Assembly: GCA_039621445.1 (NCBI GenBank)
Contig: CP154954.1
Span: 28,985,837 to 29,049,836, forward strand
Direction: 5' to 3'
DNA: 64,000 nucleotides
Origin: Euglena gracilis
Lineage: Eukaryota
Made by a program: the position numbers and the translations under genes. Of the stretch, positions 1-28,732 are shown piece after piece. Each line of letters opens with the position of its first letter. Position 1 is the first letter of the stretch. The notes beneath the pieces are model-generated. The model made no database searches. It saw only the letters and a list, made by a program, of their open reading frames with translations, and was not told the origin of the DNA.

Positions 1-2231
1 GCAATTGGATTTCTCCAATGCCTTCAATTGCATGGTCAGGTCACACCTTTTGTTGGAGGCAACTACCAGGACACCCTGCCTCTTCAATTATCTCAACTTC
101 GCATACAAGAACCCCGCCCCCGTTTTCTGCGCTGGCAAAGTCCTCTGGTCCCGCTGCGGCACACACCAGGGATGCCCACTGGGCCCCGTCGGCTTCTGCA
201 TCGGCCTGCAACCCCTAGCCGAAACCATCACAAACAACGCAGAATTACTGTGGAGTTCCTGGTACCTGGATGATGGTATCATGGTGGGACAGCCTGACAA
301 ACTGCAGAAAGTCATCTCCTTCCTCCAGGGTGAGGCCACACGCTGCGAGTTACAATTGAACCTCCGGAAGTGTGTGGTCTGGGGGCCAGCCGGCAATTCA
401 ATCACTTCTGCACCAGAAATGACCCTGATTCCCTGGGAAAAAGATACAGGGATCACGGTATTGGGGGTACCCGTGGACTTCCCCACAAGCCACCACAAGA
501 CAGCAGAAGCATGGGACTGCGCCACAGAAAAAATCGAACACGCGGCAGACATTGTTACCAGAATGACGGATGCCCAAATCTCTCATCACCTCCTACGCTC
601 ATGTCTTGACGGATGCAAAGTCAACCACCTGCTTCGCGGCTCCAACAGCTACCTCTGCCAGGAGGCAGTCAATCGGTCCTCCGAAGTCATCTTACAAGCC
701 TTTGAGGACGTGGTGGGAGTCGCACTGAACACGACACAGAGATTGCAAGCAGCACTTCCACTCTCTAAAGGAGGATGCGGGCTGCGCGTCCCCTCACACA
801 ACCAAGCAGCGGCCCGCACAGCAGCGCTTTGTGGTTTCTACACCGAAGGGCATCGGAAAATTGGTCTGCCCCAGTATGCAGGAAGTCCTGTGGCAGATCT
901 CATTGAGCCACCACTGAGAGAACTGTGTGCTGCCCTACCCAACCACCCGACAGCCCCGAGACTGCTTGGAAACCTGGCAACAACTCAGACCGCAGGAAAA
1001 GATGAGCAGTCCCAAAAATGGTAGTCCAAAGAAATAGGCAAAAACACAATGGACAACCTGATTAATCAATGCAGGCCACGGGACCAAGCCCGCCTTCTGG
1101 AACAGTCCTCAGGAATTGGCCATGGTTGGATGGCCTCTCCCCCCTCACCGGCTCTACACACAGTCTTCTCAAGTGATGAGTACTGTCTTGGGCTCAAATG
1201 GTGGCTTGGGCTGCCCATCATTGACGATGAAACACAGAAATGCCAAGGCTGCTCAGCACCACTGGACATGGAAGGGGACCACCTCATCTGCTGCCCTCGA
1301 AACAACTTCACCGCCAGACACACGGCCGTTCAGGATGCAATTTTTACTCTTTTGTCCTCCACAGGCCAAGGTGTCCAAAAGGAAGTCACGATCCCCAATG
1401 CTCTAGATGCCAACCTGCGCCCCGCTGATCTCCTACTATCGTGTTGGCAGGATGGCAAACCCACAGCCCTGGACCTCACAATCTGGCATGGTTGGCAAGT
1501 CCAAGAACAAAACACCTCACGGGAACGATGGAGGTCCTTTTTACGGCGCAAAGAAACGGCCAAGCACTCCAAATATGACGTCACCTGTCAAAACGCCGGT
1601 TGGTCCTTCACAACCTTGGCAATGGGCACGTGGGGAGGCCTGGGCCCAGAGGCCGCCCGCCTGCTTGGCCGCATCATTAAAAGAGCCACTGCATGGCAAG
1701 AAGGTGAAATCAGGGACTTGAAACAGTCGGAATGCTATCAAGCCATTGCAGTCGCACTGACTCGCCAAATCTGGCAACTACTCAGCGTAAAGCATGCTGT
1801 TCGTTAAAAAGGATACCCAGAAGCCACCAAAAGCTGCGCAAACAGGAGGCAACCAGGAAAACCCCAAGCACCCAAGCACACCAAACACCAAAATCACAAG
1901 GAAGAGGCTCCTACGGCACCATAAGACCAAAAAGACAAATCGCACCAACAACCAGGGCAATACGACACAAACACGCCCCGCCAGGCAGGCACCTACCAAA
2001 CCCCCCCCCCCCCCGCACTATATATCCAAAGTGGGCTTTGCCCACTTTCGGCTAACCACTAACCACCAACAGGTTCCGTACGTTGTCATGTACACTACCA
2101 GCAGTATGCACACCCGCGACCTGTGGCGGCACAGGAAGTCACAAGGGGGTTCCTCTTGTGGCGAGGGCCAAAAGAAACGCTACCCTGGGCCCGGGGCACG
2201 GTCTGGGTGAAGCTGTGCTACCCGCCGTGAA
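1..2231 (+). mobile_element. CRE/SLACS-like (RLE-bearing) non-LTR retrotransposon, copy 1, 3' part (5' part outside window)
   Basis: RT motifs (DFSNAFN, GTHQGCPLGP, WYLDDG), CxxC..GDH..CC finger, RLE motifs (RHTAVQD, RPADL, ALDLTI, KHSKY). Near-identical to the reverse complement of 9741-11969. Similarity ends at ...GCCGTGAA 2231. Confidence 0.92.
5..1807 (+). pseudogene. RT-zinc finger-RLE endonuclease ORF with a premature stop
   Basis: ORFs 5-1024 and 1049-1807 are one frame broken by TAG at 1022-1024, where copy 2 has TGG (QKW*SKE vs QKWWSKE). Confidence 0.9.
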
Positions 2232-9116: not shown

Positions 9117-10162
9117 AGGTTCCGGGGTGAGGTGATGTACAGGTGGGCTGTGCCCATGGTTCAGGGGTAAGGTGGTCAGGTGAACCCGGAATCGGCCATG
9201 TAGGGGCCAGGGTCCGAGGGGTGAGGTGGCAGGGAGCAGGCGGGGTGGGGTGGCATTGATGGGGGCAGGCTGTTCCCCGGTGTGCTAAATGCAGGTTTCG
9301 GGTTCGTCCGACCTTTCGGCGTTCTCTCAGGTGTGTTTACCATGTTGTCTCTACGGGACAGAGCCAATAATACCGCCCTTGGTGGCCGGTGTATGCTGCC
9401 TTGGCTTGGCATCAGCGGCCACAGGTGTTTACATGGTGTTCGCCCTGACCCTATTTTACTCCGTGGCATATGGGGTGTGGGTAGTGAGATCCACGTCGCC
9501 TGATGGCTCCGCCACTGCCCCCCAAGCCAGCTGGCGAGCCAATTCTCTTGCCAACGTTAGACTCAGCGCTTGCCATACCGTGGCCTCTGACGATCGTCGT
9601 TGAGGAACATCGGTCTGCACACAGTGCGGAGGCACTTGGATATGAATCCTGCCGCTCGCTCCACCATCCCTCCGAAGCAATCAACCACAAACGGGATGAA
9701 CGTCCATCCCAACCAGCATGCAGGTGAGGGTTGCGCAGACTTCACGGCGGGCAGCACAGCTTCACCCAGACCGTGCCCCGGGCCCAGGGTAGCGTTTCTT
9801 TTGGCCCTCGCCACAAGAGGAACCCCCTTGTGACTTCCTGTGCCGCCACAGGTCGCGGGTGTGCATACTGCTGGTAGTGTACATGACAACGTACGGAACC
9901 TGTTGGTGGTTAGTGGTTAGCCGAAAGTGGGCAAAGCCCACTTTGGATATATAGTGCGGGGGGGGGGGGTTTGGTAGGTGCCTGCCTGGCGGGGCGTGTT
10001 TGTGTCGTATTGCCCTGGTTGTTGGTGCGATTTGTCTTTTTGGTCTTATGGTGCCGTAGGAGCCTCTTCCTTGTGATTTTGGTGTTTGGTGTGCTTGGGT
10101 GCTTGGGGTTTTCCTGGTTGCCTCCTGTTTGCGCAGCTTTTGGTGGCTTCTGGGTATCCTTT

Positions 10163-12160
10163 TTAACGAACAGCATGCTTTACTCTGAGTAGTTGCCAGA
10201 TTTGGCGAGTCAGTGCGACTGCAATGGCTTGATAGCATTCCGACTGTTTCAAGTCCCTGATTTCACCTTCTTGCCATGCAGTGGCTCTTTTAATGATGCG
10301 GCCAAGCAGGCGGGCGGCCTCTGGGCCCAGGCCTCCCCACGTGCCCATTGCCAAGGTTGTGAAGGACCAACCGGCGTTTTGACAGGTGACGTCATATTTG
10401 GAGTGCTTGGCCGTTTCTTTGCGCCGTAAAAAGGACCTCCATCGTTCCCGTGAGGTGTTCTGTTCTTGGACTTGCCAACCATGCCAGATTGTGATGTCCA
10501 GGGCTGTGGGTTTGCCATCCTGCCAACACGATAGTAGGAGATCAGCGGGGCGCAGGTTGGCATCTGGAGCATTGGGGATCGTGACTTCCTTTTGGACACC
10601 TTGGCCTGTGGAGGACAAAAGAGTAAAAATTGCATCCTGAACGGCCGTGTGTCTGGCGGTGAAGTTGTTTCGGGGGCAGCAGATGAGGTGGTCCCCTTCC
10701 CTGTCCAGTGGTGCTGAGCAGCCTTGGCATTTCTGTGTTTCATCATCAATGATGGGCAGCCCAAGCCACCATTTGAGCCCAAGACAGTACTCATCACTTG
10801 AGAAGACTGTGTGTAGAGCCGGTGAGGGGGGAGAGGCCATCCAACCATGGCCAATTCCTGAGGACTGTTCCAGAAGGCGGGCTTGGTCCCGTGGCCTGCA
10901 TTGATTAATCAGGTTGTCCATTGTGGTTTTGCCTATTTCTTTGGACCACCATTTTTGGGACTGCTCATCTTTTCCTGCGGTCTGAGTTGTTGCCAGGTTT
11001 CCAAGCAGTCTCGGGGCTGTCGGGTGGTTGGGTAGGGCAGCACACAGTTCTCTCAGTGGTGGCTCAATGAGATCTGCCACAGGACTTCCTGCATACTGGG
11101 GCAGACCAATTTTCCGATGCCCTTCAGTGTAGAAACCACAAAGCGCTGCTGTGCGGGCCGCTGCTTGGTTGTGTGAGGGGACGCGCAGCCCGCATCCTCT
11201 TTTAGAGAGTGGAAGTGCTGCTTGCAATCTCTGTGTCGTGTTCAGTGCGACTCCCACCACGTCCTCAAAGGCTTGTAAGATGACTTCGGAGGACCGATTG
11301 ACTGCCTCCTGGCAGAGGTAGCTGTTGGAGCCGCGAAGCAGGTGGTTGACTTTGCATCCGTCAAGACATGAGCGTAGGAGGTGATGAGAGATTTGGGCAT
11401 CCGTCATTCTGGTAACAATGTCTGCCGCGTGTTCGATTTTTTCTGTGGCGCAGTCCCATGCTTCTGCTGTCTTGTGGTGGCTTGTGGGGAAGTCCACGGG
11501 TACCCCCAATACCGTGATCCCTGTATCTTTTTCCCAGGGAATCAGGGTCATTTCTGGTGCAGAAGTGATTGAATTGCCGGCTGGCCCCCAGACCACACAC
11601 TTCCGGAGGTTCAATTGTAACTCGCAGCGTGTGGCCTCACCCTGGAGGAAGGAGATGACTTTCTGCAGTTTGTCAGGCTGTCCCACCATGATACCATCAT
11701 CCAGGTACCAGGAACTCCACAGTAATTCTGCGTTATTTGTGATGGTTTCGGCCAGGGGTTGCAGGCCGATGCAGAAGCCGACGGGGCCCAGTGGGCATCC
11801 CTGGTGTGTGCTGCAGCGGCCCCAGAGGACTTTGCCAGCGCAGAAAAGGGGGGCGGGGTTCTTGTATGCGAAGTTGAGATAATTGAAGAGGCAGGGTGTC
11901 CTGGTAGTTGCCTCCAACAAAAGGTGTGACCTGTCCATGCAATTGAAGGTATTGGAGAAATCCAATTGCAGGCTTGCCCAATTTCCGGATGGGTCGAGTT
12001 TGTGCACCAGGTGTTGGAAGCCAATCGCAACTGACTCTGCAGCGTTCGTGACCCCTACCCCGACTTGTGTGGGTTGGAGCTTGCTCACCTGGTCTTTAGC
12101 CGTGCCTGTCGCCAATAAGGCTTTGCCAATCAATCTCTGTATGGTTTCGCCTACTGCCAC
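10163..12160 (-). CDS. Reverse transcriptase + CCHC finger + restriction-like endonuclease (C-terminal part of the element polyprotein)
   Basis: 665-aa open frame: RPVAVGE, QVGVG, LDFSNTFN, QGCPLGP, YLDD, LPLSKRGCG, CQGC..GDHLICC, RH, RPAD, KHSKY. The same frame upstream gives SAPGPSGLRP. One frameshift (~12400-12450) and a TGA at 12734 separate it from the MTase ORF. Confidence 0.92.
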   Translation of the reverse strand: MAVGETIQRLIGKALLATGTAKDQVSKLQPTQVGVGVTNAAESVAIGFQHLVHKLDPSGNWASLQLDFSNTFNCMDRSHLLLEATTRTPCLFNYLNFAYKNPAPLFCAGKVLWGRCSTHQGCPLGPVGFCIGLQPLAETITNNAELLWSSWYLDDGIMVGQPDKLQKVISFLQGEATRCELQLNLRKCVVWGPAGNSITSAPEMTLIPWEKDTGITVLGVPVDFPTSHHKTAEAWDCATEKIEHAADIVTRMTDAQISHHLLRSCLDGCKVNHLLRGSNSYLCQEAVNRSSEVILQAFEDVVGVALNTTQRLQAALPLSKRGCGLRVPSHNQAAARTAALCGFYTEGHRKIGLPQYAGSPVADLIEPPLRELCAALPNHPTAPRLLGNLATTQTAGKDEQSQKWWSKEIGKTTMDNLINQCRPRDQARLLEQSSGIGHGWMASPPSPALHTVFSSDEYCLGLKWWLGLPIIDDETQKCQGCSAPLDREGDHLICCPRNNFTARHTAVQDAIFTLLSSTGQGVQKEVTIPNAPDANLRPADLLLSCWQDGKPTALDITIWHGWQVQEQNTSRERWRSFLRRKETAKHSKYDVTCQNAGWSFTTLAMGTWGGLGPEAARLLGRIIKRATAWQEGEIRDLKQSECYQAIAVALTRQIWQLLRVKHAVR

Positions 12161-12733
12161 CGGTCTGACCCCGTCATCCTTTTGCCGAAGGGGTGTGAGG
12201 TTGGCACCGCACCAGAACGGGGAGTCTGCTGAGGGGAGGTCCCCATTGACCCAGGTGTTGGTGAGCTTGGCGAGGGCTGAGATCAGGTGTGCCCCTCTAC
12301 CCGGGCGCTTGATTGCGTCTTGCAGGTGAATGGGACGAAGCCCAGAGGGTCCTGGGGCTGACGTTAGCGGGAATCTCAGGATGGCCTCGTGTAAGATGGG
12401 TTCCCATGTAATTGACTGTCCATCTTGGAACGGTGTGATTTTGGCGGGGAGGTTGTTCGGGTCTACCGGCTTTCCGTTCGGATGGAGGGCTTCCAGTTTG
12501 TTCCAAACCTGTGGATCCTGTTGCTGGTGACAGCCTTCCGATAGCAGCAGCTGAAGTGCTTTGGCTGGGGCACCTTCCCCTGTGAGGGTTCTGCCTCTCC
12601 GGAGGGTTCTGTCTGGGAGGGTTGAGGGCTCTGTTCTGGCCTTTTTCTCCGCTCTGGTTTCAATTACCCCTGCAGCGTTCGGATTTGCTAGCTTCTGTGC
12701 TGACCGGAGTTCAGTTAGCAGCGTTCCGTAATC

Positions 12734-14225
12734 TCATGAACGGAACAGGTTGTTTCGCCTCCCCAGTGCTGAAGCAAGTTCGTCTGAGGCGTGCGCTCCT
12801 CTTGCTGCTACTGTGCGTAGGACTAGTTTGGGGTAAGCCAAGACTGCAAAGAGGCCGTCATCAGTTGGGTTGCTGGTGTATGCTTCCAGGATTGCTCCCA
12901 ACGTTTCTGATATGGCGGGTTGGAGAGTAGCGGGGACGTGCAGTATGGTATTAACGCGGAGTTGCAGGATGTCCTCGATAGGACAGGGGCTGGGACTGAT
13001 GATTATCCCAGGTCTCGTGTTGTTTCTGAGGTTGCTTTCGTTGCCTGCTGTGTCTGCAATGGTTGCTGCGTCTCTGCCTTCCCAGGGGTGGGCTAGGTCG
13101 CGTAGGGTGTCAGCGTTGTGGTCTTGGTTGTCTGGTGTTCTGCGGGCGGGGGCCGAACTCGTGCGTTCCTTGCGTTTGCTTGATTTGGGGTGTGCTGTGG
13201 TGGGATTTGTGGGTCCTGGGTTTTCCTCAATGTCTCCACAGGTGAGCAGAGATCCCCTGCCTTTGCCCTTCAGGGTTTGTTGCTTTGGGGGTGTCTGGAG
13301 CGAGGCACGTCTCTTGATTTGAAGCGTCCGGGGTCTGTGAGGTGGAGGGGTGGTGGGCTGTAGCTGTAGCAGGGATGTGCATGCGGTCACCCAGTGATCA
13401 AGGCCACATTGGGGGCAGGGGACGGGGGGTGGGAATCGTGTGTCCCATAGTGAGTCTTCGAGACAGCCGAAAGTCCGGCCGGCAAAGAAGAGAAAGGACC
13501 AGGGTCCGTTGTACGTGGCCGGGCGGGACCAGGTCTCCCTGGGGGGTAGTTCGTCTTCAAAGACAAAGGGTGTTGTGTCAGGAGGTGTTTTGGCGGTTGG
13601 GCCTGCACATGGGGGCTTCCTATGGTAGGGGTGGTAGGAGTTGAAAGGGTTCGGTCGTCGAGGGGGAGGGGTATGATTGATATAGAGTGCCCAGGAGCGC
13701 CAGGTTGGGTGGGGGAATAGAGTAGCTCCCCTTGCCCGAAAGAGGGGTTGCTTTTGGAGGAGGAAGGACTTGACGCTTAGCTTTTTAAGCTGGCCGAAGT
13801 TCGGGTGGTTTTCTGGTGCTACAAGGATGATGTGTGCCCCTTCAGTGAGGATTTTTTTCTGGACTTCGGGGAGGAGGCCGAAAGGGGGGTTGGCCCAGAG
13901 TGGGGCGTGCTGTCTCCAGGAGTGGCTAAAGGCGTTGTCCTCGGATGACCAGAACATTGGGAACTGTGAGTTGTGTGGTGAGGCAAAGGCATCGATGGTC
14001 GGTGGTGTTGCCAGTTGAAGCTCTGCCATGATTCGTCTGAGCCAGGTTGGGTCCAGCATCCAGTCGGAGATTGGGCCGGGGTTGGGTTCAATGTCCCCAT
14101 CCGATAGGAGATCCTCTCCTCTCCCTGCAGGGCACTGATTTCCGTGTTCGATGAGTGGTTGCGGGTAAGGTGTGATGAACACCTGGCGACAGTTGATACA
14201 GCAAGTGTGCCACCAATCGCCGTTT
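12734..14225 (-). CDS. 2A - N6-adenine DNA methyltransferase-like domain - 2A - RT-proximal region (mid part of the non-LTR polyprotein)
   Basis: LLSDGDIEPNPGP, then DWMLDP..IDAFASPHNSQF..F..DNAFSHSW..LWANPPF..IILVAP, then LLTCGDIEENPGP. Confidence 0.85.
13211..13234 (-). other. 2A/StopGo ribosomal-skipping motif DIEENPGP
   Basis: Exact D(V/I)ExNPGP consensus, preceded by GRGSLLTCG, which resembles Thosea asigna virus T2A (GRGSLLTCGDVEENPGP). Confidence 0.9.
14072..14095 (-). other. 2A/StopGo motif DIEPNPGP
   Basis: Exact consensus, preceded by GRGEDLLSDG. Confidence 0.85.
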
Positions 14226-14229
14226 GATC

Positions 14230-15325
14230 TGTTTCACACCCGTGCTGCCATGTCCCCCGGCAGCACTGGGGTGAAGCGGAAACCCCCGCCCCGGGCCAGT
14301 TTCCGGCGTAGGATCGTGTTTTGGCTCCTCGAGCCGACTTGTGTCGGAAATGTTTTCCCATTCTGCATCCCCCTGTGGCCGAAACTGGGCCATCATTTCC
14401 AAGGAGAAACTTCCCAGTGGACCCTTCCCGACCCCTGAGGGGGGTGTCACTGGGATCTCCAAGGGGGGTGTCTTTGGGGTTTCAACCCCTCCCTGCTCAG
14501 TTGAACCAGTGAGAGCCAACACCCCCCCCTGGGTGTCATTTCTCACAGTTTCTGGGCCAAAAAGGGGGTTTTGGGGTGAAATTTGGCCAGTGGTTGCCTG
14601 AGTTGAAGAGTCCCACCCCCCTGCCCCTTTTGCCACAGATGAGGTGGGGGGGGGAAGACAAACCTCACCTTCTTCAAATGATTGATTGTTTTGTTGATCT
14701 TCCATTTGCAATTGAAATTCCAAATTCAATACTTGATTGTAATTGGATGCAATTGCCACAACAAGTACAATGGTGCAACAGGTAAAGAGGAAAACCCTGT
14801 GAAAAGAAAATGATTTTGATGCCCTTGATGGGCAGTTAAATTTAGGATTGAGTGCGCTGATTCCTAAGCGCTCTCAAATCCCAAATCTTAGCCCATTGCG
14901 TCAAAATCAACCAACCCAGGTCGAAATCAAGGTTTCCCCCCTTGATTTTGATAAATTATGCTGAATTCCATCATTATTGAGCTTTGCAAACCCCTGCAAA
15001 AACTCCAGGAACTCAGGCGCCAATCTCTTAAAATTCTGTTCCAAGCGTTTGCAAGCGCTCTCACCAAATCCAACATTTTCCCTTAAAACCAAAGGAAAAA
15101 TGCATAAAAAGCTTAAAATGTGCTAAATAAACCCAAAATCACCATTTGGGAATACCTAGCATCACTCAATCTCTCTCCTTGCACAACCAAACCATGGGCG
15201 CCCTAGGAGAGGGAATTTTAATGGAAATCTTTAGAAAGCCTTAAAATTAGAGCTAAACCGCCCTTAAAAGGCCTTCTAAAAGGGAAAAACTCCGCCGCCC
15301 GGCGGTCGACCTCAAACGGTCGTCA
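14230..15325 (-). repeat. 3' LTR
   Basis: Near-identical direct repeat of 26649-27744. Confidence 0.95.
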
Positions 15326-15336
15326 CTCCCCCCCTT
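15326..15336 (-). other. Polypurine tract
   Basis: AAGGGGGGGAG on the minus strand, immediately before the 3' LTR TG. Confidence 0.8.
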
Positions 15337-16296
15337 GCGACGAAAGTCGGGGGTTTCACCCCCCCTTCTCGCTTCCTTGGGATGGGAATGAAAGACACTT
15401 TGATTTTTTGTAACGCGCGATAACATTGTTCGGCAATGTGAATAAGTGGTGGCGTAGCGGTGAGGAGGAATCTATAACTCATAGATCCCATTCCACCACA
15501 CCGAGCCCCCCCCCCCCACGGTTCTCACCACCGCGGAAGGAAATGAGGGGCCGACACCACTCAAACAAAAATTCTTTTTGAATGGATAAGAGTCACCCCC
15601 CCCCACGGTATTCCCAACCGTGAAGGGAATGGAGAAGATTGCCCCCCCCCCCCCCCCCCCGGCGAGAGGTGGGCTTGACTTGCCCCCTCCCCCCCGAGGG
15701 GAAAGCCTTGGGTAACCGCCCCCCCCCCAAGCAAAGGGAGGGCTTCCCCCCCCCCCCCCCCCCCGGGGGGAAAGCCTTGGGCAACCCCCCCCCCCCCCCC
15801 GGGCAAAAGGGGGGCTTGCCTTGCCCCCCCCCCCCCCCCGGCGGGGAGGTTGAAGAAGACCACTCACTTCTTTTTTTTTGGAAGTAATAACACGCCCCCC
15901 CCCCGATCAAGCCGACCGGGGTTTCGGGCCTCACTTGCCCAAAGGTGGGGGTACGATAAAATAGCCAATCAAACCGATTGGAGAAAGGGACCCCCCACCA
16001 CGAGTGCCACCGACCCGTGAGAGGGGAGAAATGAAAAATCACAGATTCCTCTTTCATGACTGTGGGCGCAACGGGGCACAGTGTCGTTCGAGTGTGGTCA
16101 GGTTACACTTTCGGCCTGTCCACCGCTCGTGGAAGCTTGATATTCCAGACTTCGAATAATAATTGAGAATCCGTCTTCAACTCGTCCAACTCAGAGTCCC
16201 GGCTCTAGGTTCCGTCCTGAGTAAGTACGAGGAGGCAGGAGGCAGGCAGTTGTATATACATCCCATTCCCCATAAATCCAATGCCATGCAAAGATA

Positions 16297-17639
16297 TTAA
16301 TACCACCAGGGGTAGGGCTGCGGTGGGGGGTATGGGTACGGTTGGGGGGGGTACGGTGGTTGATGTGTGTGGCAGCAATGATTGCAGCTTGGGGGGTTTT
16401 GTTTCCACTGCCACTCCTCCGTGCCCTTGCCGATCCCCTTGTAAGGTATGGGCTTGGGAGCCCAGGGACGGCGGGGGGCCGGAGGGGCTGTGGACTTGGA
16501 GGCGGGCTGAGCTGGGGGCTTGGGTTCGGGGTTGCTTTTGGGCTTCTTTGCTGATGTCGGTGCATCTTCCGCCCTTCGTTTGGGAGGTGGGTGTGTGCGG
16601 TGGTACTGCCGCACAATTTCCTTCCCCATTTCCACCTGGATTCCCCGATTGGCCTTGCCCTTGACTGGGCGTATGGGGCAATCCATCTTACGGTGGCCCA
16701 GCTCGCCACAAAACCAGCAGGTGGCAGGGGGGAAATCCTCCCCCAACCGTCCTTTATTTACAAAAGGGTTCTTCTCGGCTGTACCGATGAGCAGACCGTG
16801 GCCCTTCCCTACCCTTCTCTCACTCCAAACCAGGAGTGAGATTAACAGATGTGCCCATTGAGGAAATCGGCCTCCTCCGACCACAGGAGGAGGTACCGTT
16901 CGCCTCGGAGTTCCTTCCATAATGCAACATGGACCCACACCATGTCCGCATTTGGGAAATGAACAAGCACATGGGACCTTTGTGCTTGCTCGAGGTAAAA
17001 TCCTCGGACCCACCTCCAGTGGTTTTGCCACCGAGAACTTTCCCCCATCACTTCAATCTAATCGGGTACACGGGATGGGAACCAAACCGGCACCCATCCA
17101 TTTATGGCCACATAAGCAAAACCATCCACATCGACAATTCGCTTGACGATGCGGGATTTGCCTTTTGATGTTGGCAAATTCATCTCGCCCCCATCCGGGG
17201 TTGGATGAAATGGTAATTGTCCTTCTCCACCCATCAAAACAATAAAATACGGATCCCCGGCTAGTTTCTCCCAAGCCGTTCGGATGTCCGGATATAAACT
17301 TTCGATAACCACCTGAACTTCCGTTCTCGGGGGTTCAGGGGCATATCGAAAAATAGCGTCCCAAGCATCCGAAAATCCTTCGGTTGCTTGAACCCCATCC
17401 AAACCCGGACAGGGTTGATGGATGAGTTCTGGAAATAAAAACTCAAAAAATGACGAAGAAGCACTGCCCCCATCATTTTTCTGAAGTGCCTTTTCCAGTT
17501 CGGGGGTGACCTCCTCCTCCTCCGAGGGGGCCGCCTCCTCCTCTGTGGGGTTTTCTGTTGGCACGTCCACCTGCATCTGTGAAGGGGCATGGAGTGGGAC
17601 CTCCCCCTCCCCAGGCAACCACTCCAGGCCCTTTTTCAC
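16297..17639 (-). CDS. Additional sense ORF(s) downstream of pol; acidic region followed by a CCHC zinc knuckle (possibly frameshifted)
   Basis: ORFs 17058-17639 (E-rich) and 16297-17031 (CWFCGELGHRKMDC, KGKG- and P/Y-rich tail). Confidence 0.5.
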
Positions 17640-17656
17640 CTCCCTTTCCCCCTTTT

Positions 17657-20600
17657 TCAGGTTGCCGTTGCCTTTAAATCCTTAGAGACATCTAACGGCA
17701 ACCCTTTTCCCAGGCAATACGCTATTACGTCGCTATTGTACTCCTGGAAAAAATGTTCCACCGGTTCCCAATTCGCCTCCTCAAACCCTTGCCACTTCGT
17801 TAAGAAAAACATTTTTCCCTTAACGAACTTGTGGTTTAGGATTTTATCCACAAACCAGGTATCTGGGGCACCTTCCGCCTCAGGTACCGTCCGCCGGTGG
17901 AAAAATATGGGGATAGGCTTATCAGATGTGGGATCCTCCACATACAGCTTCAAAGCCTTCCGATGGGCCTTCATAATATAGCCTGGTTTAACATCAATTA
18001 GGTAGGAGTGAATTGCCTCCCTCGCAGTAACCTTGCAAGGGCCCAACCAACGGGAATCCAATTTTGTGCCACTATCGGGGGGTCTCAGGTACCACACCAG
18101 ATTCCCCACCTCCAATGGCTCCCAACCGTCTAAACCACGGTTGGCCCGAGCACATTGCTTGGCATGCAAATTATTCATTTTGCCAGCCACTACCAAATCA
18201 ATTTCTCTTTGCCGAGAGAAAAATGATCTGGCATCTTCACAATCCCTTAACGGTTCATAAGGTAAACCACCCAATGAACGGTGTCGACCGAACAAGATTT
18301 GAAATGGGCTTAGGCCACTCTCCCCCGGCGTATCATGGATACGGTCTAGTGCTTGGGGGAGGGCTTCAACCCAATTCAACTTGTCCTCAACCTGAATTTT
18401 CTTAAGCCGTTCCATTATTTGTTGGCCAGCCCTCTCCGCCCTACCATTCGCCTGGTGATGGTAGGCCTGGGAGTAGGCTTGCCTAATTCCCATCAAGGCA
18501 CACATTGTCTGCCACCAACCGGCGACAAAATGTGAGCCTAGATCGGAAGTAATAATGGAAGGGACGCCAAAAGGTCTCCAAGCATGCAACAGCATTTGCT
18601 TGGCTGCCTTGGCTCCCGTAAATCCTTTTGCTAGGTGGGGGATCGCCACTATCCAACCGGAGTGACGATCCACACACACAAGCATGGAGTCGTAAGAATT
18701 CCCTTCCCACTCCACGAGAGGCATGCTAAACATGTCAAGGGCCACCGAATACATTACGGCTGGGGGTATGGGTGTAGATTCCACTAAACCCTTAAGACTC
18801 GCCGGCCTTCGGCACGCTTGGCAAGTCCCACAAAGGCCCATGACTCCTTTAGCAAAATCTCGAGCGAGTGAGGAATCAGCCCAATCATACCTAAGGGACA
18901 TGCATTCCCATAGCCTTGGGAATCCCACATGCCCTTGGTATGAGTGGTGATCCCGAATGAGTTTTTCTTGGAGAGATTTGGGCACACAAAGCCTCTCCTC
19001 GAAAAACATTTTGTCACCAAAAACCTTGACAATTTCAGGCCACGGCACCTTTGAATCCTGGGTAGCCTGAAAAATTGGTGACCAACGGGGACATTTTAAA
19101 TATTCCTCCTTCCACGATAAATCCCACACAGAACCAGGGGGGATGGGTGAGGAATCGGTTGTAGAAGTGGCTTCCCCCCCCTCACCACTCAAACCACCTG
19201 AAGACAACACAGGTGATTCTCGGTCTGCCCCAGGTACCTCAGTGGTAGCCGCGGCAGCAGGTTCAGGGGTTGGCATTGTTGGCGAAGCTGGTATAGAAGT
19301 GGGTGTCAATGGAAAATGCTCCCCCCTTGGCTCTTGGACCTCCTCCACAAGACTTGTCTCATTCCCAAACTCGTCAACCCGAGTTGAGAATGAAACATGT
19401 TTTCCTTTTTCTCCCTTGGGGGTGGAGGTTGAACCCAAACCCTGGGGTTTTGTTCCTCCAAGTGGTTCTGACTTCCTATCCCCCGGTCGTGTGCACCGTC
19501 CACCCGCGTCCCCGGACCCCGTGGTAGCACCACCCCGTGTGGTGACTCCACGAATGTATGTGTTGGCTGTGGTTGGTTGGTCCACCAACCGTAGCCACAT
19601 ACATTCGGCTTCCTCCATTTTTTCTGTTTGAATGATTTCCCTCATTTCCTCGGTGTCAAGGGCTGACCCATGCCTTGAAATGTCCTTCAAGGCTTGGGAG
19701 GCCGGGTAAGCCCATCTTGACAATAAATCGGCTATGGTATTCTCCCGCCCCGGGATATACCCAACCGATAGGTCAAATTTTGATAAGATTTGATGCCACC
19801 TAGCCCTTCTCCCAATGGGACCACTTGGTGTGTCTAGAACCTCTCTAGCCCAAGATTCTAGAGCCTTGTGGTCCGTGAGAACCAGGACGGGCTGCAGCCC
19901 AATCCATGATTCCCACTTTTGTAAGGCTAGGATTATGGCATAAGTCTCCTGTTCCCTAGGTACCCAGTTTCTTTGGCTGCCCGTTAGCTTCCTACTCATG
20001 AAGGCGACAGGCACAGTACGCTTGGCCCGTACGTCTTCAGGAGTAGGAGCCCTATCCTCCCCAACCAATTGTTCAAGGGTGGCACCAACCGCATACTGGC
20101 TGGCATCCACTCTTAAAACAAATGGTTTGTCTGGCTTAACGTGTTGTAAAATTAATTCACTGCACAACAGTGATTTAATTTTTTCAAATGCCTCAATGTC
20201 GGATGGTTCCCAAGAAATCCTTTTCTTGGAACCCTTCTTGCCGTCCACTCGAGAAACTTTGAGCTTATCTTGAAGGCAAGCGACAATGTGGGCGTAATCC
20301 TTCACATAGGAGCTGTAATAATTTGTGAACCCCAAAAAAGCACGTAGACCCGTGATTGTTTGGGGTAGCTCCCATTTTTCAATGGCCATCAGCTTTCCAG
20401 GGGATGGTTTTCTCACCCCACCACCCAGAACATGGCCACAAAACTCAACTTCTTTTACGAAAAGACGGCATTTTCTTTTGTCGGCTACAAATCTGTCTTT
20501 TCGTAAAACTTCAAGGACTCTTCGCAAATCCTTGTCATGTGCTGCGAGTAAATCCTCACCAGGACCCACTCGAGTTCCAACCAAAATGTCGTCGATGTAA

Positions 20601-21967
20601 GGATCAGCCACGTCCCCCACCGGGAAGAGGCGATCCTCCATCATTTGCTGAAACTGCTGGCTTGCGTTTGTTAGACCCATCACATTAACCCTCCACTGAA
20701 AAAGACCGAGGGGGGTACTGCAACATGTGATGGGCCGGCTTTCCGGGGCCAACGGCTGTTGGTGGAAAGCCTGCCGTAAATCCAAGATGGAAAACATCAC
20801 GTTTCCACCTTGTTTTACAAGGAGGTCTTCACTTACGGGAAGGGGGTAGGACACACACCTAGTTTGAATGTTAGGCCCCCGCATGTCTACCACTCCCCTC
20901 CATTCGCCTCCTTTTTTCGGCACAACAAATGTTACGGACAGCCATTCCGAAACTGTTCCCTTGGGCAATCGCTCAACAAATTTCAGGTCCCACCATTCCT
21001 GGGTGACCTTTTTGTGAGCTTCAAATCTTTCACCGTGTAACACAAAGGGTTTTTGCCTTGTGGGTACAGCCCCCTCCTTCAGAGGAATCTGGGCGTAACC
21101 ATAAGGTCCCCGAACAGGAGGGTCGGGGGGTACCTCCGTACCCAACACCTCCCCTTCAAAATCCTGAAAAATTCTGTTCCGAAATGCCACTACCCTTGGG
21201 TCCTCCTTCTCACCCAAGTCGCGAGCCTGGATTATGGCATTCACTGCCTTGTCCTCGGCTGGCGATTCGGTGAGATGCCTGGCTATGGTATGCAATTCCT
21301 TCTTGCCAAGGAATCTTGGTTGCATATCAAAGCCCTGCAAGGGCAGATGCAAATTCATTTTTTGCAAATCCAACCACACCTTTTCATTTTCAAGGGACTC
21401 CGTGGTTGGTGCGTTTTCAGGGGATTCTCCGAAGTCAGAAATCACAACCCCAATTCTTTTTTGTGAATTGTGTTTTTTCTTCCCCTTATGGGATTTCCTT
21501 TTCTGATTTCTTGTTTCCCACACGTACGAGAAAGTCAGATTAGGATTGTCAAAAACCAGGGCCTTATGGTGTGGAAACACACCCAAACCATGTTCGGCTA
21601 ACCATGGAAATGATAATATAGCATCTACCTCAATATCCGCGAGGTAGAATTCCCCTTCGAGGTACAAGGCCTGGGTGCCCCCCTGCCCCGTACCCCTGCG
21701 TTGAAAACCCAACTCCAACTTAATACACTGGTCACCCCCCAAAACACATTGGCCGTTGGCAGCCACCAGCCGAATTGGCATTCGCGGTGACCTGGCCAAA
21801 TGTTTTGGGACGATGGACCTTTTGACCAGGTTCACCTGGGCTCCCGTGTCCACCAAAACTTTGAGCTGCTTGGTATCTCCGTTAGGGAGATACGTCTGTG
21901 ATGACATCAAAAGCTGCAGCTCGTTTTCAATGGGCAACACCTGATTGACCTTCAAGGTGTTGGCCAA
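17657..21967 (-). CDS. pol: Gypsy pol polyprotein: aspartic protease, RT, RNase H, integrase, chromodomain
   Basis: 1436-aa open frame: LVDTGAQ, LDLRQAFHQ, YIDDIL, VDASQYAVGA, TDHKALE, H..GHVG..CGTCQ, ALDMF/TSDLG/AERAG, and C-terminal WFVDKILNHK..FLTKWQGF..WEP. Confidence 0.97.
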   Translation of the reverse strand: MANTLKVNQVLPIENELQLLMSSQTYLPNGDTKQLKVLVDTGAQVNLVKRSIVPKHLARSPRMPIRLVAANGQCVLGGDQCIKLELGFQRRGTGQGGTQALYLEGEFYLADIEVDAILSFPWLAEHGLGVFPHHKALVFDNPNLTFSYVWETRNQKRKSHKGKKKHNSQKRIGVVISDFGESPENAPTTESLENEKVWLDLQKMNLHLPLQGFDMQPRFLGKKELHTIARHLTESPAEDKAVNAIIQARDLGEKEDPRVVAFRNRIFQDFEGEVLGTEVPPDPPVRGPYGYAQIPLKEGAVPTRQKPFVLHGERFEAHKKVTQEWWDLKFVERLPKGTVSEWLSVTFVVPKKGGEWRGVVDMRGPNIQTRCVSYPLPVSEDLLVKQGGNVMFSILDLRQAFHQQPLAPESRPITCCSTPLGLFQWRVNVMGLTNASQQFQQMMEDRLFPVGDVADPYIDDILVGTRVGPGEDLLAAHDKDLRRVLEVLRKDRFVADKRKCRLFVKEVEFCGHVLGGGVRKPSPGKLMAIEKWELPQTITGLRAFLGFTNYYSSYVKDYAHIVACLQDKLKVSRVDGKKGSKKRISWEPSDIEAFEKIKSLLCSELILQHVKPDKPFVLRVDASQYAVGATLEQLVGEDRAPTPEDVRAKRTVPVAFMSRKLTGSQRNWVPREQETYAIILALQKWESWIGLQPVLVLTDHKALESWAREVLDTPSGPIGRRARWHQILSKFDLSVGYIPGRENTIADLLSRWAYPASQALKDISRHGSALDTEEMREIIQTEKMEEAECMWLRLVDQPTTANTYIRGVTTRGGATTGSGDAGGRCTRPGDRKSEPLGGTKPQGLGSTSTPKGEKGKHVSFSTRVDEFGNETSLVEEVQEPRGEHFPLTPTSIPASPTMPTPEPAAAATTEVPGADRESPVLSSGGLSGEGGEATSTTDSSPIPPGSVWDLSWKEEYLKCPRWSPIFQATQDSKVPWPEIVKVFGDKMFFEERLCVPKSLQEKLIRDHHSYQGHVGFPRLWECMSLRYDWADSSLARDFAKGVMGLCGTCQACRRPASLKGLVESTPIPPAVMYSVALDMFSMPLVEWEGNSYDSMLVCVDRHSGWIVAIPHLAKGFTGAKAAKQMLLHAWRPFGVPSIITSDLGSHFVAGWWQTMCALMGIRQAYSQAYHHQANGRAERAGQQIMERLKKIQVEDKLNWVEALPQALDRIHDTPGESGLSPFQILFGRHRSLGGLPYEPLRDCEDARSFFSRQREIDLVVAGKMNNLHAKQCARANRGLDGWEPLEVGNLVWYLRPPDSGTKLDSRWLGPCKVTAREAIHSYLIDVKPGYIMKAHRKALKLYVEDPTSDKPIPIFFHRRTVPEAEGAPDTWFVDKILNHKFVKGKMFFLTKWQGFEEANWEPVEHFFQEYNSDVIAYCLGKGLPLDVSKDLKATAT

Positions 21968-22039
21968 ATGACACCAACGGTCTGGAATTTCCCATTCCTA
22001 AAAATCCTGGGAACTTTGGGAAATTTCTTTGGGCTGGTC

Positions 22040-22700
22040 CCCCTGAAAATCCCCAGCACTTAGGAGATAATCAATCACCAGGGGGGGTATTCTTCCTTTT
22101 TGTCGGGGGGTAAACTTCATTTTTCTCCCCCCCAACAATTCACGGTGCCGGAGTTGCCCATTGTCCCCCATCACCAGGTTAGGACACGATCCGCCATCTC
22201 ACAACACCGACCGTAGTTGTGAAATGGCTGGGCAGCACCAGAAACGTGTGGGCTTTTTATAACCCCAATCCGAAAACTGACAATAATCAGTGTCGATATA
22301 GGGCAGGTTTTTCACCACCTCCCTATTTCGCAAAAGACCAGTGCGGGGGTTCTCCAACCACCACAACTTGGGCTGAAAATAATTTATAATTTCCAGGTTT
22401 TCTCCACCAGGGCATCCGCCTGGGAGAAATCCCTTGGCCTGGGGTTATAAGCCGTGGAATAAATATTACAGGGGGGACTAGCGGCAATAACCTCAAAAAA
22501 TCCAACCGGGTATCGCCTGTAGTCCCAGGTCAAAATGTGTGTGTGGGGGTGGAAGTCCGTCCAAGGAGCATTTTCAATTGACAAAACTTCATACCCCCGT
22601 TCTACCAACCGCCTCCCAACCGAACCTGTGCCAGCGAATAAATCTAATGCCTGAGGTCGCTGAGCTGGTGGCAGGGGGTTGGGTTGTGGCAGATTTGAAT
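22040..22700 (-). pseudogene. Cytosine-5 DNA methyltransferase domain (frameshifted)
   Basis: LDLFAGTGS (motif I) and ASPPC (IV). After a 1-nt shift near 22395: WWLENP (VI), DYCQFSDWGYKKPTRFW (VIII-like). Then RIPPLVIDYLL (X-like) in the pol frame. Confidence 0.88.
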
Positions 22701-22926
22701 GCAAAACGGGAACCCTTGAACATTTTCCTTCCCTCCAGGAGTAACGAGTCCGATTCAAAAATCTGGGGGGCTGATCCATAGAATGTTTTCCCCCACACCC
22801 TGAATCAGCCATAAAATCCTGTACAGCCCAGTTTTTTGAATCAGAAGTATTTACACCGTTTTCCTCACAGGGGGGAGAGACACGGCCATGGGCAGCCACC
22901 CCCTTCTCAAACTGCCCCTGGCCCCC

Positions 22927-25288
22927 CTATTGGGCCCCTGGGGGAGAAGAGGTGGGCCCACCCCCCTTTGACCATGCACCCCCCTTGCCCGAGGAATTTC
23001 GCTGAGTGGCTGGCTGCCCTTTACCCTTGGGCTGCCCCTTGCCTTTTCCATTATTTTGCCAAAATTCCTTAGATTTAGCAAGGGCCTCACTCAGCGGCTT
23101 GTTACACTCATAAAAATAATGCCCGCACTCCCCACAGTTGAAGCATGGATATGGGGACCTGCCCCTACCCGATGCCTGCGGGGTCCAGGTCTGCCCCCCC
23201 TTGCCTTGCCGGGCTGGGGGTGCTGGACTTTGGGTTCGCGACCATGAAGCTGCACCTGGCCGCGAAGACGAAAAAGGGGACCTGCCCCGCTGGGCTGGCT
23301 GGGCTGGCCCCTTATCTCCCTTTGGAGCTGGCTGTGGGGCAGATTTTAAGGTGTGACCCTGCCCCCCGGCTGCTGGTGTTGACACAGAGGTTGGGGACAC
23401 CGGGGGGGTTTGGCCTTTTTCCAACACCTGTATTTTCCCTGAGCCTTTTGTTGTCGATTTGCTGAATAATCTGGGAAAATGGTGCTGATTCAAAGCCAAA
23501 TCCTGCTTCTCCCGAAGAGCTAACTTGCCCTCGGCAAAAGCAAACATTTCCTCAACGGTCATTAGTTGTTCCACCAATTCAGCGTTGAGGAAATTTTCCA
23601 TTCCCTGCAATTTCCTTCGATTTACGGCTGTTAATTTCAGTGCCTCCTCCGAAGAACTGAAATAAATAAGGCAAAAGGCACCAGGGTTTTTGATAACCAC
23701 CTTCCGTGGATCAATCCCCCCAGTGATCTGGCTCACACTCCTTTTAATCCCATCCACCGTGGGATTTGGTATCCCTGTGAGCCTGACAATGGGTTGTTTA
23801 CGGGCTCGGTTATCCTCCTCTTCTATGCAAAACTTGCTTAAAAAAGGAGGAATTCTTTCCAAAAATAATCTCCGAGCCTCCCCAGCTGTGGCATCCTTAA
23901 CATGGTGCCAGGCACTGCAAAATTTAATCCAAAATTCTTGCAGATCAGCCCGGGTAATTTTTCCTTCGTTTACCATAGTTACCTCCTGCCATATTTTCCG
24001 AGCCGTTAGCCCCTTACTCGAGGCATAACGGTTCTGGAACTGAGCCAATATGGTGGGGTAACTTAATTTAGCTCCATTCAACCGATAGAGCCTGATTTCC
24101 TCCCTTAATCTGGGTCCTAAACATGCCTCAAAAACCTGCAGCTTTTGCAAATCAGAATACGGTTTCCCTGATGTCAACCAGTAAAGATGTCAACCAGTAA
24201 AGATTCCAATCTACTTCAAAATCTTGCCAGGAAATGCTGCCCGATTCATCAAAATAGGGCTTAGCACCTCCCTGCAAAATTTCAAAAGCTACTGGGTCAC
24301 CGATAAAAGGAAAACCCAACCCGTGTCCTGGGTTGGCTGCAGCCCCCCCTGTCCCGATAGGCCTAATCGAGAAAGCAGGGGCTGCAGAAATATGTGGAGG
24401 GACACACAATGACACAGAAGAAACCACTGCTGTGTCTTGCGTGTCCTCCAAAACAAATCCCCCCTCAATCACTAAGGGAGGGGAAATGTTTGAAACTGCA
24501 GATTTATTATGAGAAAAAATCTGATCTGAAAAAGCTGGGTCAGCACTGGGCACCGTGCTGGCCAGTGAGCTGGACTGAGGCTGCCCCAGGGGCTGCTGCT
24601 GTCCAGCCGACGGCAGGCTCAGCCCCATTGGCAGCCTGTGAGCAGGCTGCGGCTGGCCTGCTGGCTGGCCAGGCTGCTGGGCTAGCTGGACGACGGGCTG
24701 CTGGGCCAGCTGCTGCCCAGGCTGTGGCAGCCCCGCTGGGTGTAGGGGCTGCTGGCTGCCCTGCCGCAGCCACCACATGTCAGATTTTTTTTGCAAAACC
24801 CCTCTCGGTTCTGCAATTGGGTGTACGGGTCCATTTTTTTGTAAATCCTGCAGCACTTTCTGTAACTCGAAAGTGTTCCCCCCAACTTTTGCAAGTCCCT
24901 GCCTTAATTCCTCCACCAGCCCACCAAATTTTTTCTCCTGGGAAAAAATCAGCTGATAAACACTCTGAAAATTCTGCTCACAATCCGTCAGCAGTTCTTG
25001 TATTTCTGAGTGTCGTTTCCCTACTTCATCTGAAATATTCTGGTGCAGTTTTTGAATACCCCCACCAAAACCATGGAGGGCTGTATTCATCGCTGAATTT
25101 TGTTCACCCAGCTGGCGAACATAATCAGCGAACTGCTGGAGCTGCTGAGCCTGGCCCTGTACCGTACTACGCAGCGATACCAGGTCAGCCTGAACTTCAA
25201 TGATTTTGGCAGCGACAACGGCCAGCTCCTGGAGAGTTTCTGCCTCCCCCCCCCTGAGCTGGCTGGGCGGCTTTAAAATTCTCAGCAA
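22927..25288 (-). pseudogene. gag: gag (coiled-coil N-part, capsid-like region, CCHC knuckle), split by a 16-bp tandem duplication
   Basis: CFNCGECGHYFYEC. Duplication GATGTCAACCAGTAAA at 24170-24185/24186-24201 explains the frameshift between ORFs 24152-25288 and 22927-24177. Overlapping ORFs up to ~26600 may be further frameshifted N-terminal parts. Confidence 0.85.
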
Positions 25289-26635: not shown

Positions 26636-26648
26636 CCTCTGCTTACCA
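26636..26648 (-). other. Primer-binding site (initiator-Met tRNA-like)
   Basis: TGGTAAGCAGAGG directly after the 5' LTR, similar to the complement of tRNAiMet 3' ends (TGGTAGCAGAGG). Confidence 0.75.
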
Positions 26649-27744: not shown

Positions 27745-28058
27745 GATCGTGTTTCCAGAAAATCCATTATCCAGTCCCAGCGTCTTTGTAGGAAGGTGGG
27801 GTTTTGAAAGATATTGCCCAGGGGTCGTCCAAGTTGACAGTCATGTGTTTCGATTCGCCAACGAGCCCAGAGGGGGAAGTTTTCCTGGCAGAGGTAGCAC
27901 GTTACAAAGGGGAGCGTTGGTTGGATCTGTTGGTTGACTGACGTGCTTGGCCCTGAGGCTGCCGGCCTGGTGCGGGTCCAACGCCAACTTTGTCCATTTA
28001 GGCAAATGTCTTCCTAGACTTCCTCGGGGTTTTCTTGGGGGCGGGACCGGCCTGCCGG

Positions 28059-28082
28059 GGGACCAGGGTTTTGTTCAATGTC
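28059..28082 (-). other. 2A/StopGo motif DIEQNPGP
   Basis: Exact consensus (LVRQAHDIEQNPGP), in the same reconstructed frame as the other two 2A motifs, with one TAG at 28014-28016. Confidence 0.78.
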
Positions 28083-28571: not shown

Positions 28572-28732
28572 GCACGGCACGGCACGGCACGGCACGGCAC
28601 GGCACAGCACGGCACGGCACGGCACGGCACGGCACGGCACGGCACGGCACGGCACGGCACGGCACGGCACGGCACGGCACGGCACGGCACGGCACGGCAC
28701 GGCACGGCACGGCACGGCACGGCACGGCACGG
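28572..28732. repeat. (GGCAC)n pentanucleotide microsatellite
   Basis: About 32 units, one variant. Confidence 0.97.

Follow-up and report, generated by a model that had tools for sequence, protein, structure and literature searches.

We analysed a 64,000-nucleotide stretch of the Euglena gracilis genome (contig CP154954.1, positions 28,985,837 to 29,049,836, hereafter the window), which contains a long interspersed nuclear element (LINE), a retrotransposon without long terminal repeats (LTRs), that encodes a Dam-like N6-adenine methyltransferase (MT), a reverse transcriptase (RT) and a restriction-like endonuclease (RLE) in one open reading frame (ORF) punctuated by 2A (StopGo) peptide motifs. 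The LINE lies on the minus strand, and its frame runs from 14233 to 10163, comprising 1357 codons with a lone internal TGA at codon 500. Reading the sequence, we consider it probable, on balance, that the element is a defunct member of a high-copy RLE LINE family, the single ORF of which is laid out like the polyprotein of a small RNA virus and would release a free, active MT. The features of the LINE are given below from 5' to 3'.

27745-28571, minus strand: 5' LINE segment of the same copy, separated from the 3' segment by a nested LTR element; 5' limit uncertain
28059-28118, minus strand: 2A-0, FNLTKQLVRQAHDIEQNPGP, with NPGP at 28059-28070 and the octet DIEQNPGP
28014-28016, minus strand: in-frame TAG, 12 codons past 2A-0; the adjacent same-frame ORFs are 28014-28829 and 27672-28013
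27837-27902, minus strand: C2HC zinc-like module 1, TCYLCQENFPLWARWRIETHDC, of the pattern C-x2-C-x12-15-H-x1-4-C
9741-14229, minus strand: 3' LINE segment, from the end of zinc module 2 to the 3' end of the element, without poly-A, ending ...CCGCCGTGAA
14132-14206, minus strand: C2HC zinc-like module 2, TCCINCRQVFITPYPQPLIEHGNQC, to which residues 278-334 of relative P0003 align (tblastn)
14072-14113, minus strand: 2A-1, DLLSDGDIEPNPGP, containing DIEPNPGP (14072-14095); 9-mer GDIEPNPGP
13661-14071, minus strand: Dam-like N6-adenine MT domain, 137 aa, its first residue being the next after the 2A-1 proline
13996-13979, minus strand: IDAFAS motif of the MT, same frame
13900-13880, minus strand: LWANPPF motif of the MT, same frame
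13262-13660, minus strand: Pro-rich tail of the MT product, holding the motif LWD.R..P.P..CP.C....W.W.C.SLL
13379-13417, minus strand: CPQCGLDHWVTAC in the Pro-rich tail, part of the conserved tail motif
13211-13261, minus strand: 2A-2, GRGSLLTCGDIEENPGP, 9-mer GDIEENPGP
12734-12736, minus strand: in-frame TGA, codon 500, aligned to Gly in relatives P0001 and P0002
11498-12181, minus strand: RT domain, Pfam RVT_1, 33 bits against a cut-off of 29.6
11707-11693, minus strand: YLDDG of the RT, same frame
10391-10729, minus strand: RLE region with CQGC..GDH..CC (CCHC), RH, E, RPAD, ALDITI (D) and K..KY
9741-10162, minus strand: 3' untranslated region (UTR), the last ~120 nt of which are 9741-9860

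The original prediction, made from this DNA without database searches, had proposed the order 2A, Dam-like MT, tail, 2A and RT-RLE in one frame at 13211-14095. This order was present, and the coordinates were exact, their bounds being the D that opens the first DIExNPGP and the final P that closes the second. Both of the 2A sites said to bracket the MT were found, and the count of two had to be raised to three, with 2A-0 lying farther upstream and a zinc cassette containing the two C2HC modules lying between 2A-0 and the MT. We regard this architecture as near certain. Neither the zinc modules nor the MT tail matched a Pfam family. The tail motif was kept in relatives P0002, P0006, P0010, P0012 and P0015; its fourth ligand position, which is His in the window, was not conserved, making zinc binding doubtful.

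Six-frame translation of the 64 kb yielded three NPGP motifs, all within the LINE ORF and all of the form D-I-E-x-N-P-G-P. Across 200 shuffled windows the mean count was 1.12 for NPGP (maximum 6) and 0.005 for the 8-residue motif (maximum 1), indicating that the 2A motifs are real and not due to chance. From 99 distinct 2A sites of the family we derived the consensus GRG..LL.CGD(V/I)E.NPGP, in which G was found at 87 sites, D at 87, V/I at 93 and E at 87; 83 of the 99 retained [DG]-[VI]-E-x-NPGP. In the upstream stretch, leucine occupied position -12 at 70 and position -11 at 57 of the 99 sites. 2A-1 and 2A-2 fit this consensus, and the upstream part of 2A-0, LTKQLVRQAH, differs from it. 2A-2 is presumably one residue off T2A, a biotechnology peptide.

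The cassettes between the 2A sites were found in two orders. The window, relatives P0001 and P0008 and the metagenome contig L001 have a leader, 2A, zinc module, 2A, MT, 2A and RT-RLE, and seven relatives (P0003, P0021, P0022, P0024, P0045, P0046 and P0090) have a leader, 2A, MT, 2A, zinc module, 2A and RT-RLE. The C-x2-C-x12-15-H-x1-4-C module also occurs in L001, P0001, P0008, P0021, P0022, P0045, P0046 and P0090. Tandem 2A sites were present in P0002, P0018 and P0045, the last of which contains five 2A sites in total.

Published data bear on whether such sites would separate the cassettes. The tables of PMC8623073 give GDIEENPGP and GDIEPNPGP (Lesavirus 2) as natural viral 2A motifs and report ~99% and ~94% cleavage for the TaV and PTV-1 peptides with GDVEENPGP, and DIEQNPGP is the canonical L1Tc octet according to Odon 2013 (PMC3708506). 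It is quite unlikely, in our estimate, that the NPGP motifs separate poorly and leave a mostly fused polyprotein, or that they act as a translation throttle. Such a role would agree with the reduced abundance reported, in a high-throughput preprint of 2026, for 59-70% of tested ORF1p/ORF2p 2A-like peptides (bioRxiv 10.64898/2026.06.17.732966). Against it, all three sites in the window carry the full D-I-E-x-NPGP, LL.CGD is also kept in the family, the sites lie precisely at domain borders, tandem 2A sites occur, and the 2A borders are kept even where the cassettes have been reordered. Moreover, StopGo was functional in every eukaryotic system tested, according to passages of PMC12846837.

We examined the identity of the MT by profile searches. 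The MT exceeded the curated gathering cut-off of the Pfam family PF05869 (28.1 bits), the isolated domain scoring 31.6 bits and the inter-2A protein 29.8, with profile positions 30-81 of 169 covered, and PF05869 matched 45 of 57 aligned relatives at E<=0.001 (best E 1.5e-12). The MT also matched phrog_111 'DNA methyltransferase' (E 1.2e-7), and among phage genomes tblastn picked out genes annotated as N6-adenine methyltransferases (25-33% identity, best E 3e-4). When the 57 relatives were aligned by hhalign with four annotated phage Dams, the score was 98.8% (E 6.4e-17) over 136 columns and phage positions 29-169 of 201; a control alignment with the RT-RLE profile scored 0.4%. In this alignment DW..DP was paired with D.W.TP, IDAFAS with (L/I)DAAA, HN with HN, DNAF with DNAL, W with W, and NPPFG with NPPYS. 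The MT domain is thus a complete small Dam core with 2A-1 exactly at its N-terminal edge. These results indicate homology to the small phage Dam enzymes over the whole core, bearing out the Dam-like N6-adenine MT that had been predicted.

The catalytic residues were conserved, at about 98% overall. Among 152 relatives, the D of DAFAS was kept in 145 of 147, its F in 146 of 147 and the W in 149 of 150; within NPPF, the N was kept in 149 of 152, the first P in 143, the second P in 147 and the aromatic residue in 151. The window copy has both NPPF and the D of IDAFAS. Comparison of the window copy with other copies showed that 16 of the 28 listed coding differences were synonymous; within the MT there were 4 synonymous and 4 non-synonymous differences, too small a number to gauge selection.

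To survey the family, 1.84 billion representatives were scanned with the 137-aa domain, which gave 704 matches at E<=0.001, 106 at <=1e-10 and 5 at <=1e-30. Relative P0010 (1294 aa), 44% identical over codons 59-1355 of the window ORF, has the full architecture in one ORF. P0018 (1273 aa) and P0013 (1805 aa, ~30%) contain Dam, 2A, RVT_1 and the endonuclease region in one ORF, and MT-2A-RT-RLE was found in one open frame in relatives at 30-50% identity, P0166 and P0178 also among them. NPGP was present in 54 of the 152 relatives. It ended within -8 to 25 aa of the MT start in 30 of the 91 that have at least 25 residues upstream, and a later NPGP followed downstream in 24 of the 37 that extend more than 120 residues beyond the MT. 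Starting from the RT side (88 relatives), NPGP was found in 10 of 10 relatives with at least 44% identity and at least 170 aa upstream, and in 4 of 23 more distant ones. The MT was present in 4 of 4 RT relatives with at least 450 aa upstream and also in P0018 (405 aa), and P0217 (427 aa upstream, 27% identity) is without it.

For a quick maximum-likelihood tree we took, out of 152 MT domains, the 107 that had 105 or more match columns, and added the window and the four phage Dams. The window fell in a clade of 39 rows (SH-aLRT 98), 30 of which have NPGP, and all seven of the included relatives linked to RLE LINEs were inside it. This clade was nested among other retroelement DAM (Dam-family MT) domains with the phages outside, the deeper branching being unsure. 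Another retrotransposon, and not a phage directly, is the most likely source of the MT.

We consider it barely credible that the MT cassette is an artefact, either a nested fragment of a DIRS or LTR element within the LINE or a product of chimeric assembly. One genuine nested insertion, the gypsy element, is indeed present in the window, and the DAM-LTR preprint offers nesting or assembly artefacts as an explanation of Euglena DAM elements with LINE-like RTs (bioRxiv 10.64898/2026.05.21.726589). The uninterrupted frame in P0010, P0013, P0018, P0166 and P0178 argues against this, as does the clade that the MT domains form on their own. The DNA-contig depth also tapers gradually toward the 5' end and shows no jump at either MT border. 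A private insertion, which the original prediction had named as the outcome that would overturn it, is thus not what was found; the MT is integral to the family, with relatives that carry it in one frame and in a supported clade.

Other carriers of the Dam domain were found among the matches, including members located upstream of other RTs. In P0114 (source label Genlisea aurea) Dam shares the protein with a C5 DNA methylase, in P0104 Dam is followed by a copia-type RVT_2, and L002 (847-5172) is a DAM chromovirus with protease, DAM, RT, RNase H, integrase and chromodomain.

It had also been suggested that the MT and the RLE form a pair resembling a restriction-modification system, the MT protecting or marking the sites of the RLE. 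Both activities do reside in one element, and GATC is depleted in the LINE copy (12 sites where 19.6 would be expected), where it is the most under-represented 4-bp palindrome. The same was observed in the non-satellite part of the window (1-47514), with 89 GATC sites seen against 121.7 expected, GATC again being the most under-represented 4-bp palindrome. Since the depletion is equal in the neighbourhood, it is not specific to the element and is not evidence about the MT. The same DAM family occurs without an RLE in L002, P0104, P0114 and DIRS and LTR elements, indicating that the MT does not depend on the endonuclease; nothing connects the specificities of the two enzymes, and the 3' flanks of the LINE are diverse. 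The analogy thus gained no support, the MT family being present in gypsy, copia-type and other RLE-less retroelements, and we regard such a pairing as very improbable.

We investigated which kind of LINE carries the MT. The best PDB matches of the RT-RLE profile were R2 proteins (9nl3_A, E 1.6e-13; 9dou_A, 2.7e-13). An MT-free RT-RLE profile again placed R2 first (E 3.9e-10), with L1 ORF2p next (about 1e-4 to 1e-5), and the RT-RLE as a single sequence had no match in the PDB. The RLE motifs aligned to the R2 endonuclease (KPDLI and VVDVTV in R2) in a second stretch of 9nl3_A, a match that is weak alone (i-Evalue 11). The R2-first profile matches together with the aligned endonuclease motifs point to an RLE-type LINE of the R2 supergroup. 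The original prediction had called the LINE CRE-like. The hallmark of CRE elements, insertion in spliced-leader genes, was not seen, as the 3' flanks are diverse and those of two copies in the window differ; no spliced-leader RNA was matched by Rfam in the window, and dinoflagellate and Euglena spliced-leader patterns were also absent. The sole named RT relatives were hypothetical proteins labelled Diplonema papillatum (31%) and Closterium (28%). Pfam detected no tyrosine recombinase or RNase H in the LINE ORF, and the MT is upstream of the RT, not downstream of RT-RNase H as in DIRS elements, with an RLE present; membership in DIRS was rejected on these grounds.

The copy in the window is interrupted by a nested Ty3/gypsy element, which is not part of the LINE. 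The features of this element and of a second LINE copy are as follows.

14230-27744, minus strand: nested Ty3/gypsy chromovirus, 13.5 kb, inserted in the LINE
27744-26649, minus strand: gypsy 5' LTR, 1096 bp, with TG..CA ends
starting at 26648, minus strand: gypsy primer-binding site, TGGTAAGCAGAGG, directly after the 5' LTR
ending at 15326, minus strand: gypsy polypurine tract, directly before the 3' LTR
15325-14230, minus strand: gypsy 3' LTR, 1096 bp, with TG..CA ends
27748-27745 and 14229-14226: target duplication GATC of the gypsy element
1-2231, plus strand: second LINE copy of the same family, comprising the C-terminal part of the RT, the RLE and the 3' UTR, cut by the start of the window

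The intervals 14232-15325 and 26651-27744 are 98.4% identical over 1095 bp. Their similarity was considered as an upstream repeat, which was rejected, as the TG..CA ends, the primer-binding site, the polypurine tract and the GATC duplication identify them as an LTR pair. The gypsy pol is an open frame of 1446 codons (17657-21997) with RT, RNase H, integrase and a weak chromodomain match. The LINE frame remains in phase across the insertion (...FLETRS | NGDWW...), and the unrelated metagenome contig L001 reads ...FLETLGNGDWW... uninterrupted at the same point. L001 was the single close LINE-type relative among the 13 loci found in a search for related loci with a narrow alignment. The 5' frame of the LINE is open up to 28829 and continues through a (GCACG)32 microsatellite at 28572-28733, leaving the 5' end of the LINE undefined.

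The family is high-copy, with 3492 contig pieces in run X1, 1017 of them at >=99% identity. The second LINE copy is 99.0% identical to 11969-9741, its match ends at the same base, and its flanks are different; it has a nonsense codon of its own (QKW*SKE, where the first copy has QKWWSKE). The copies follow a non-LTR pattern, with a common 3' end (9741 and 2231) and 5' truncation, and the only LTRs are those of the nested gypsy. Loose contig ends at 9741-9743 agreed poorly (0.36-0.38 over 21-29 contigs), indicating diverse 3' flanks. Codon 500 encodes Gly in every other DNA contig spanning it (6 in run X1 and 5 in X10), so the TGA is private to the window copy. With the nested gypsy, the TAG after 2A-0 and the TGA at codon 500, the window copy is dead.

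The DNA-contig depth over the last ~120 nt of the LINE (9741-9860) was ~30x that of the body, and loose contig ends were seen at 9789 and 9860. This suggests a SINE-like (short interspersed nuclear element) family or many tail-only copies with the 3' end of the LINE. The fold of the 3'-terminal 120 nt was no better than that of shuffled sequences (z -1.22; 22 of 200 shuffles as good). At gathering score, Rfam had no match in the whole 64-kb window; this includes the 3' UTR and the 5' region 27745-29300, in the latter of which no hepatitis delta virus (HDV)-like ribozyme or other Rfam family was found.

Elsewhere in the window, the interval 28572-31023 (minus strand) holds a member of another, distantly related RLE-LINE family (29190-30473), ~30% identical to the LINE studied here. 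A 165-bp tandem repeat (30485-31023) precedes it, and it is followed by the (GCACG)32 microsatellite that adjoins the 5' part of the studied LINE. This microsatellite may be the tail of the distant element or the target of the studied LINE. An ORF fragment at 31157-31489 (plus strand) with an RRM_1 match (E 2.2e-7) was the sole sign of a host gene, nine ORFs having been scanned in the 31-47 kb region. A satellite array at 47515-64000, with 77 copies of a 213-bp unit (97% matches), reaches the end of the window with a constant base skew.

The architecture and its conservation, the homology of the MT with its phage-invariant residues, and the location of 2A-1 at the N-terminal edge of the MT core can be read from the sequences themselves; the working of the element is a proposal. 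The three StopGo/2A sites would split the nascent chain during translation into four pieces, the ribosome releasing each cassette on finishing NPG, so that the zinc-finger protein, the Dam-type enzyme and the RT-RLE would all be free. Sizes computed from the coordinates apply to an undisrupted ORF. The first piece would be a variable leader. The second, of ~156 aa with the two zinc modules, is perhaps a nucleic-acid-binding partner, as ORF1 is in other LINEs. The third, of ~287 aa, would comprise the Dam core and its Cys/Trp tail and, judging from residue conservation, be catalytic, and the fourth would be the RT-RLE enzyme of ~1016 aa. The freed MT may methylate adenines on the new cDNA of the element, on the insertion or on the DNA-RNA hybrid, as hypothesised for DAM-LTR elements, and the resulting N6-methyladenine (6mA) mark would place new copies in permissive chromatin or shield them. 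We thus propose, tentatively and at somewhat less than even chances, a widespread clade of RLE LINEs with reshuffled, 2A-punctuated cassettes in which an active, free Dam writes 6mA on the nascent cDNA or insertion, and copies thereby enter or mimic permissive chromatin or escape defence.

Several observations weigh against an active, freed MT and its proposed working. The MT matched the NCBIfam model TIGR01712 (phage_N6A_met) with E 2.5e-8 and 33.7 bits against an equivalog cut-off of 97.05, indicating a homologue and not an equivalog. Searched by sequence, the PDB had no match to the MT-domain profile (E<=10) or to the phage Dam profile. The window copy has two in-frame stops and a nested insertion, and 2A-0 is preceded by no in-frame ATG. 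RNA-labelled contigs match stretches of the element (25 pieces in X15 and 20 in X17); these libraries may hold DNA, and transcription is therefore not shown by them. Skipping and methylation are inferred. Representative eukaryotic retroelement DAMs expressed in dam-deficient E. coli gave no rise in 6mA (bioRxiv 10.64898/2026.05.21.726589), passages of Iyer et al. 2016 (PMC4738411) judge the MT domains of DIRS1 to be inactive and PCIF1-derived, and most of the tested retrotransposon 2A-like peptides lowered protein abundance, as noted above for passages of bioRxiv 10.64898/2026.06.17.732966.

Some of these points would equally fit an MT-like domain kept for a role other than DNA methylation, either as a binding or RNA-polymerase-mimicking module or as an RNA m6A/m6Am methylase acting on its own transcript. 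The same passages of Iyer et al. propose that the DIRS1 MTs may just bind the template transcript, the eukaryotic retroelement DAMs tested in E. coli would be explained, and the MT product occupies the position of the usual RNA-binding ORF1 protein, an idea that de Mendoza et al. 2018 also raise for a LINE DNA methyltransferase (DNMT; PMC5890265). We consider this somewhat unlikely. The phage-invariant residues (D, N, W and NPP-aromatic) are kept in 93-99% of the 152 relatives, which would be hard to explain for a mere binding module, and the MT profile reached no PDB chain at E<=10 (including PCIF1, if it is among them), whereas it aligned with phage Dam at 98.8%. We retain the freed, active MT as our preferred reading.

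If this reading is true, the element would have the first adenine methyltransferase in a non-LTR element and would be a natural case of StopGo multi-cistronic expression in a cellular gene. Dam in RLE LINEs would extend DAM capture to a third major class of retrotransposons, supporting a general advantage of the module, and may explain some of the 'orphan' or 'chimeric' DAM sequences of protist genomes. Since the MT is fenced by 2A sites, it is predicted to be a free protein and its activity should be easy to test in isolation; release by 2A may also explain the inactivity of the fusions tested so far. The family suggests that a single-ORF LINE can yield several proteins without a second ORF and can shuffle its cassettes, and its relatives are a source of 99 distinct natural 2A sites.

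Separate parts of this arrangement have been described. Dam-like MTs are known in DIRS elements, and a 2026 preprint (bioRxiv 10.64898/2026.05.21.726589) reports DAM in LTR elements; 2A peptides have been reported in Dualen/RandI, together with a dinoflagellate ORF2p with an OTU domain (passages of bioRxiv 10.64898/2026.06.17.732966), and in dinoflagellates (passages of PMC12338488). Full-text searches of the literature, together with the main text of the DAM-LTR preprint, turned up no report of an adenine methyltransferase in a non-LTR element or of 2A in an RLE-only LINE. The combination of a Dam MT and 2A in an RLE LINE thus appears to be undescribed, in line with the earlier remark that this architecture was unfamiliar in RLE LINEs.

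The closest known system for the MT is the group of DAM retrotransposons (DIRS1-group and DAM-LTR/EpiLTR, bioRxiv 10.64898/2026.05.21.726589), which, in the main text of that preprint, share the PF05869 retroelement branch and the conserved NPP-aromatic pocket. Those elements have a tyrosine recombinase or an integrase with the MT inside pol, whereas here a non-LTR RT and an RLE are present and the MT is fenced by 2A sites; the main text, as distinct from the supplements, names no DAM-LINE class. SymbioLINE-Dnmt (de Mendoza et al. 2018, PMC5890265) is also a LINE with a DNA MT upstream of the RT, but its enzyme is a C5 DNMT in a separate ORF1 and the element is of the apurinic/apyrimidinic endonuclease (APE) type (Exo_endo_phos), whereas here a Dam-family MT lies in the ORF of an RLE-type RT. 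In the main text of that article 'self-cleaving' occurs 0 times and 12 passages contain no 2A, the term '2A' being too short to search. The small phage Dams, for example those of Vibrio phage Pm34, Xanthomonas phage DIBBI, Gordonia phage GAL1 and Edwardsiella phage eiAU, share the core (DxW..P, D-x-F/A-A, HN, DNA-L/F, W and NPP-Y/F-S/G) at the 25-33% identity given above; by contrast, the MT of the LINE is eukaryotic and retroelement-borne, has a Pro-rich Cys/Trp tail and scores far under the equivalog cut-off.

R2 likewise has a single ORF with an RT followed by a CCHC motif and a PD-(D/E)xK-like endonuclease. In contrast to R2, the LINE studied here has no recognised N-terminal zinc-finger/Myb in its RT product, no ribosomal DNA target and no HDV-like ribozyme that was found, and it has extra cassettes and 2A sites. 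Picornavirus-like polyproteins also combine one ORF with repeated StopGo and use the identical 9-mers GDIEENPGP and GDIEPNPGP (passages of PMC8623073), but the element is a cellular retrotransposon without capsid or RNA polymerase. Among LINEs, 2A was reportedly found in L1Tc and ingi by Heras in 2006. L1Tc, ingi and other APE-type LINEs likewise have D(V/I)ExNPGP near the N-terminus of the ORF, as described in passages of PMC3708506. APE-type 2A LINEs usually have one 2A before ORF1p/ORF2p, whereas the LINE in the window has three and relative P0045 up to five, fencing cassettes that vary in order.

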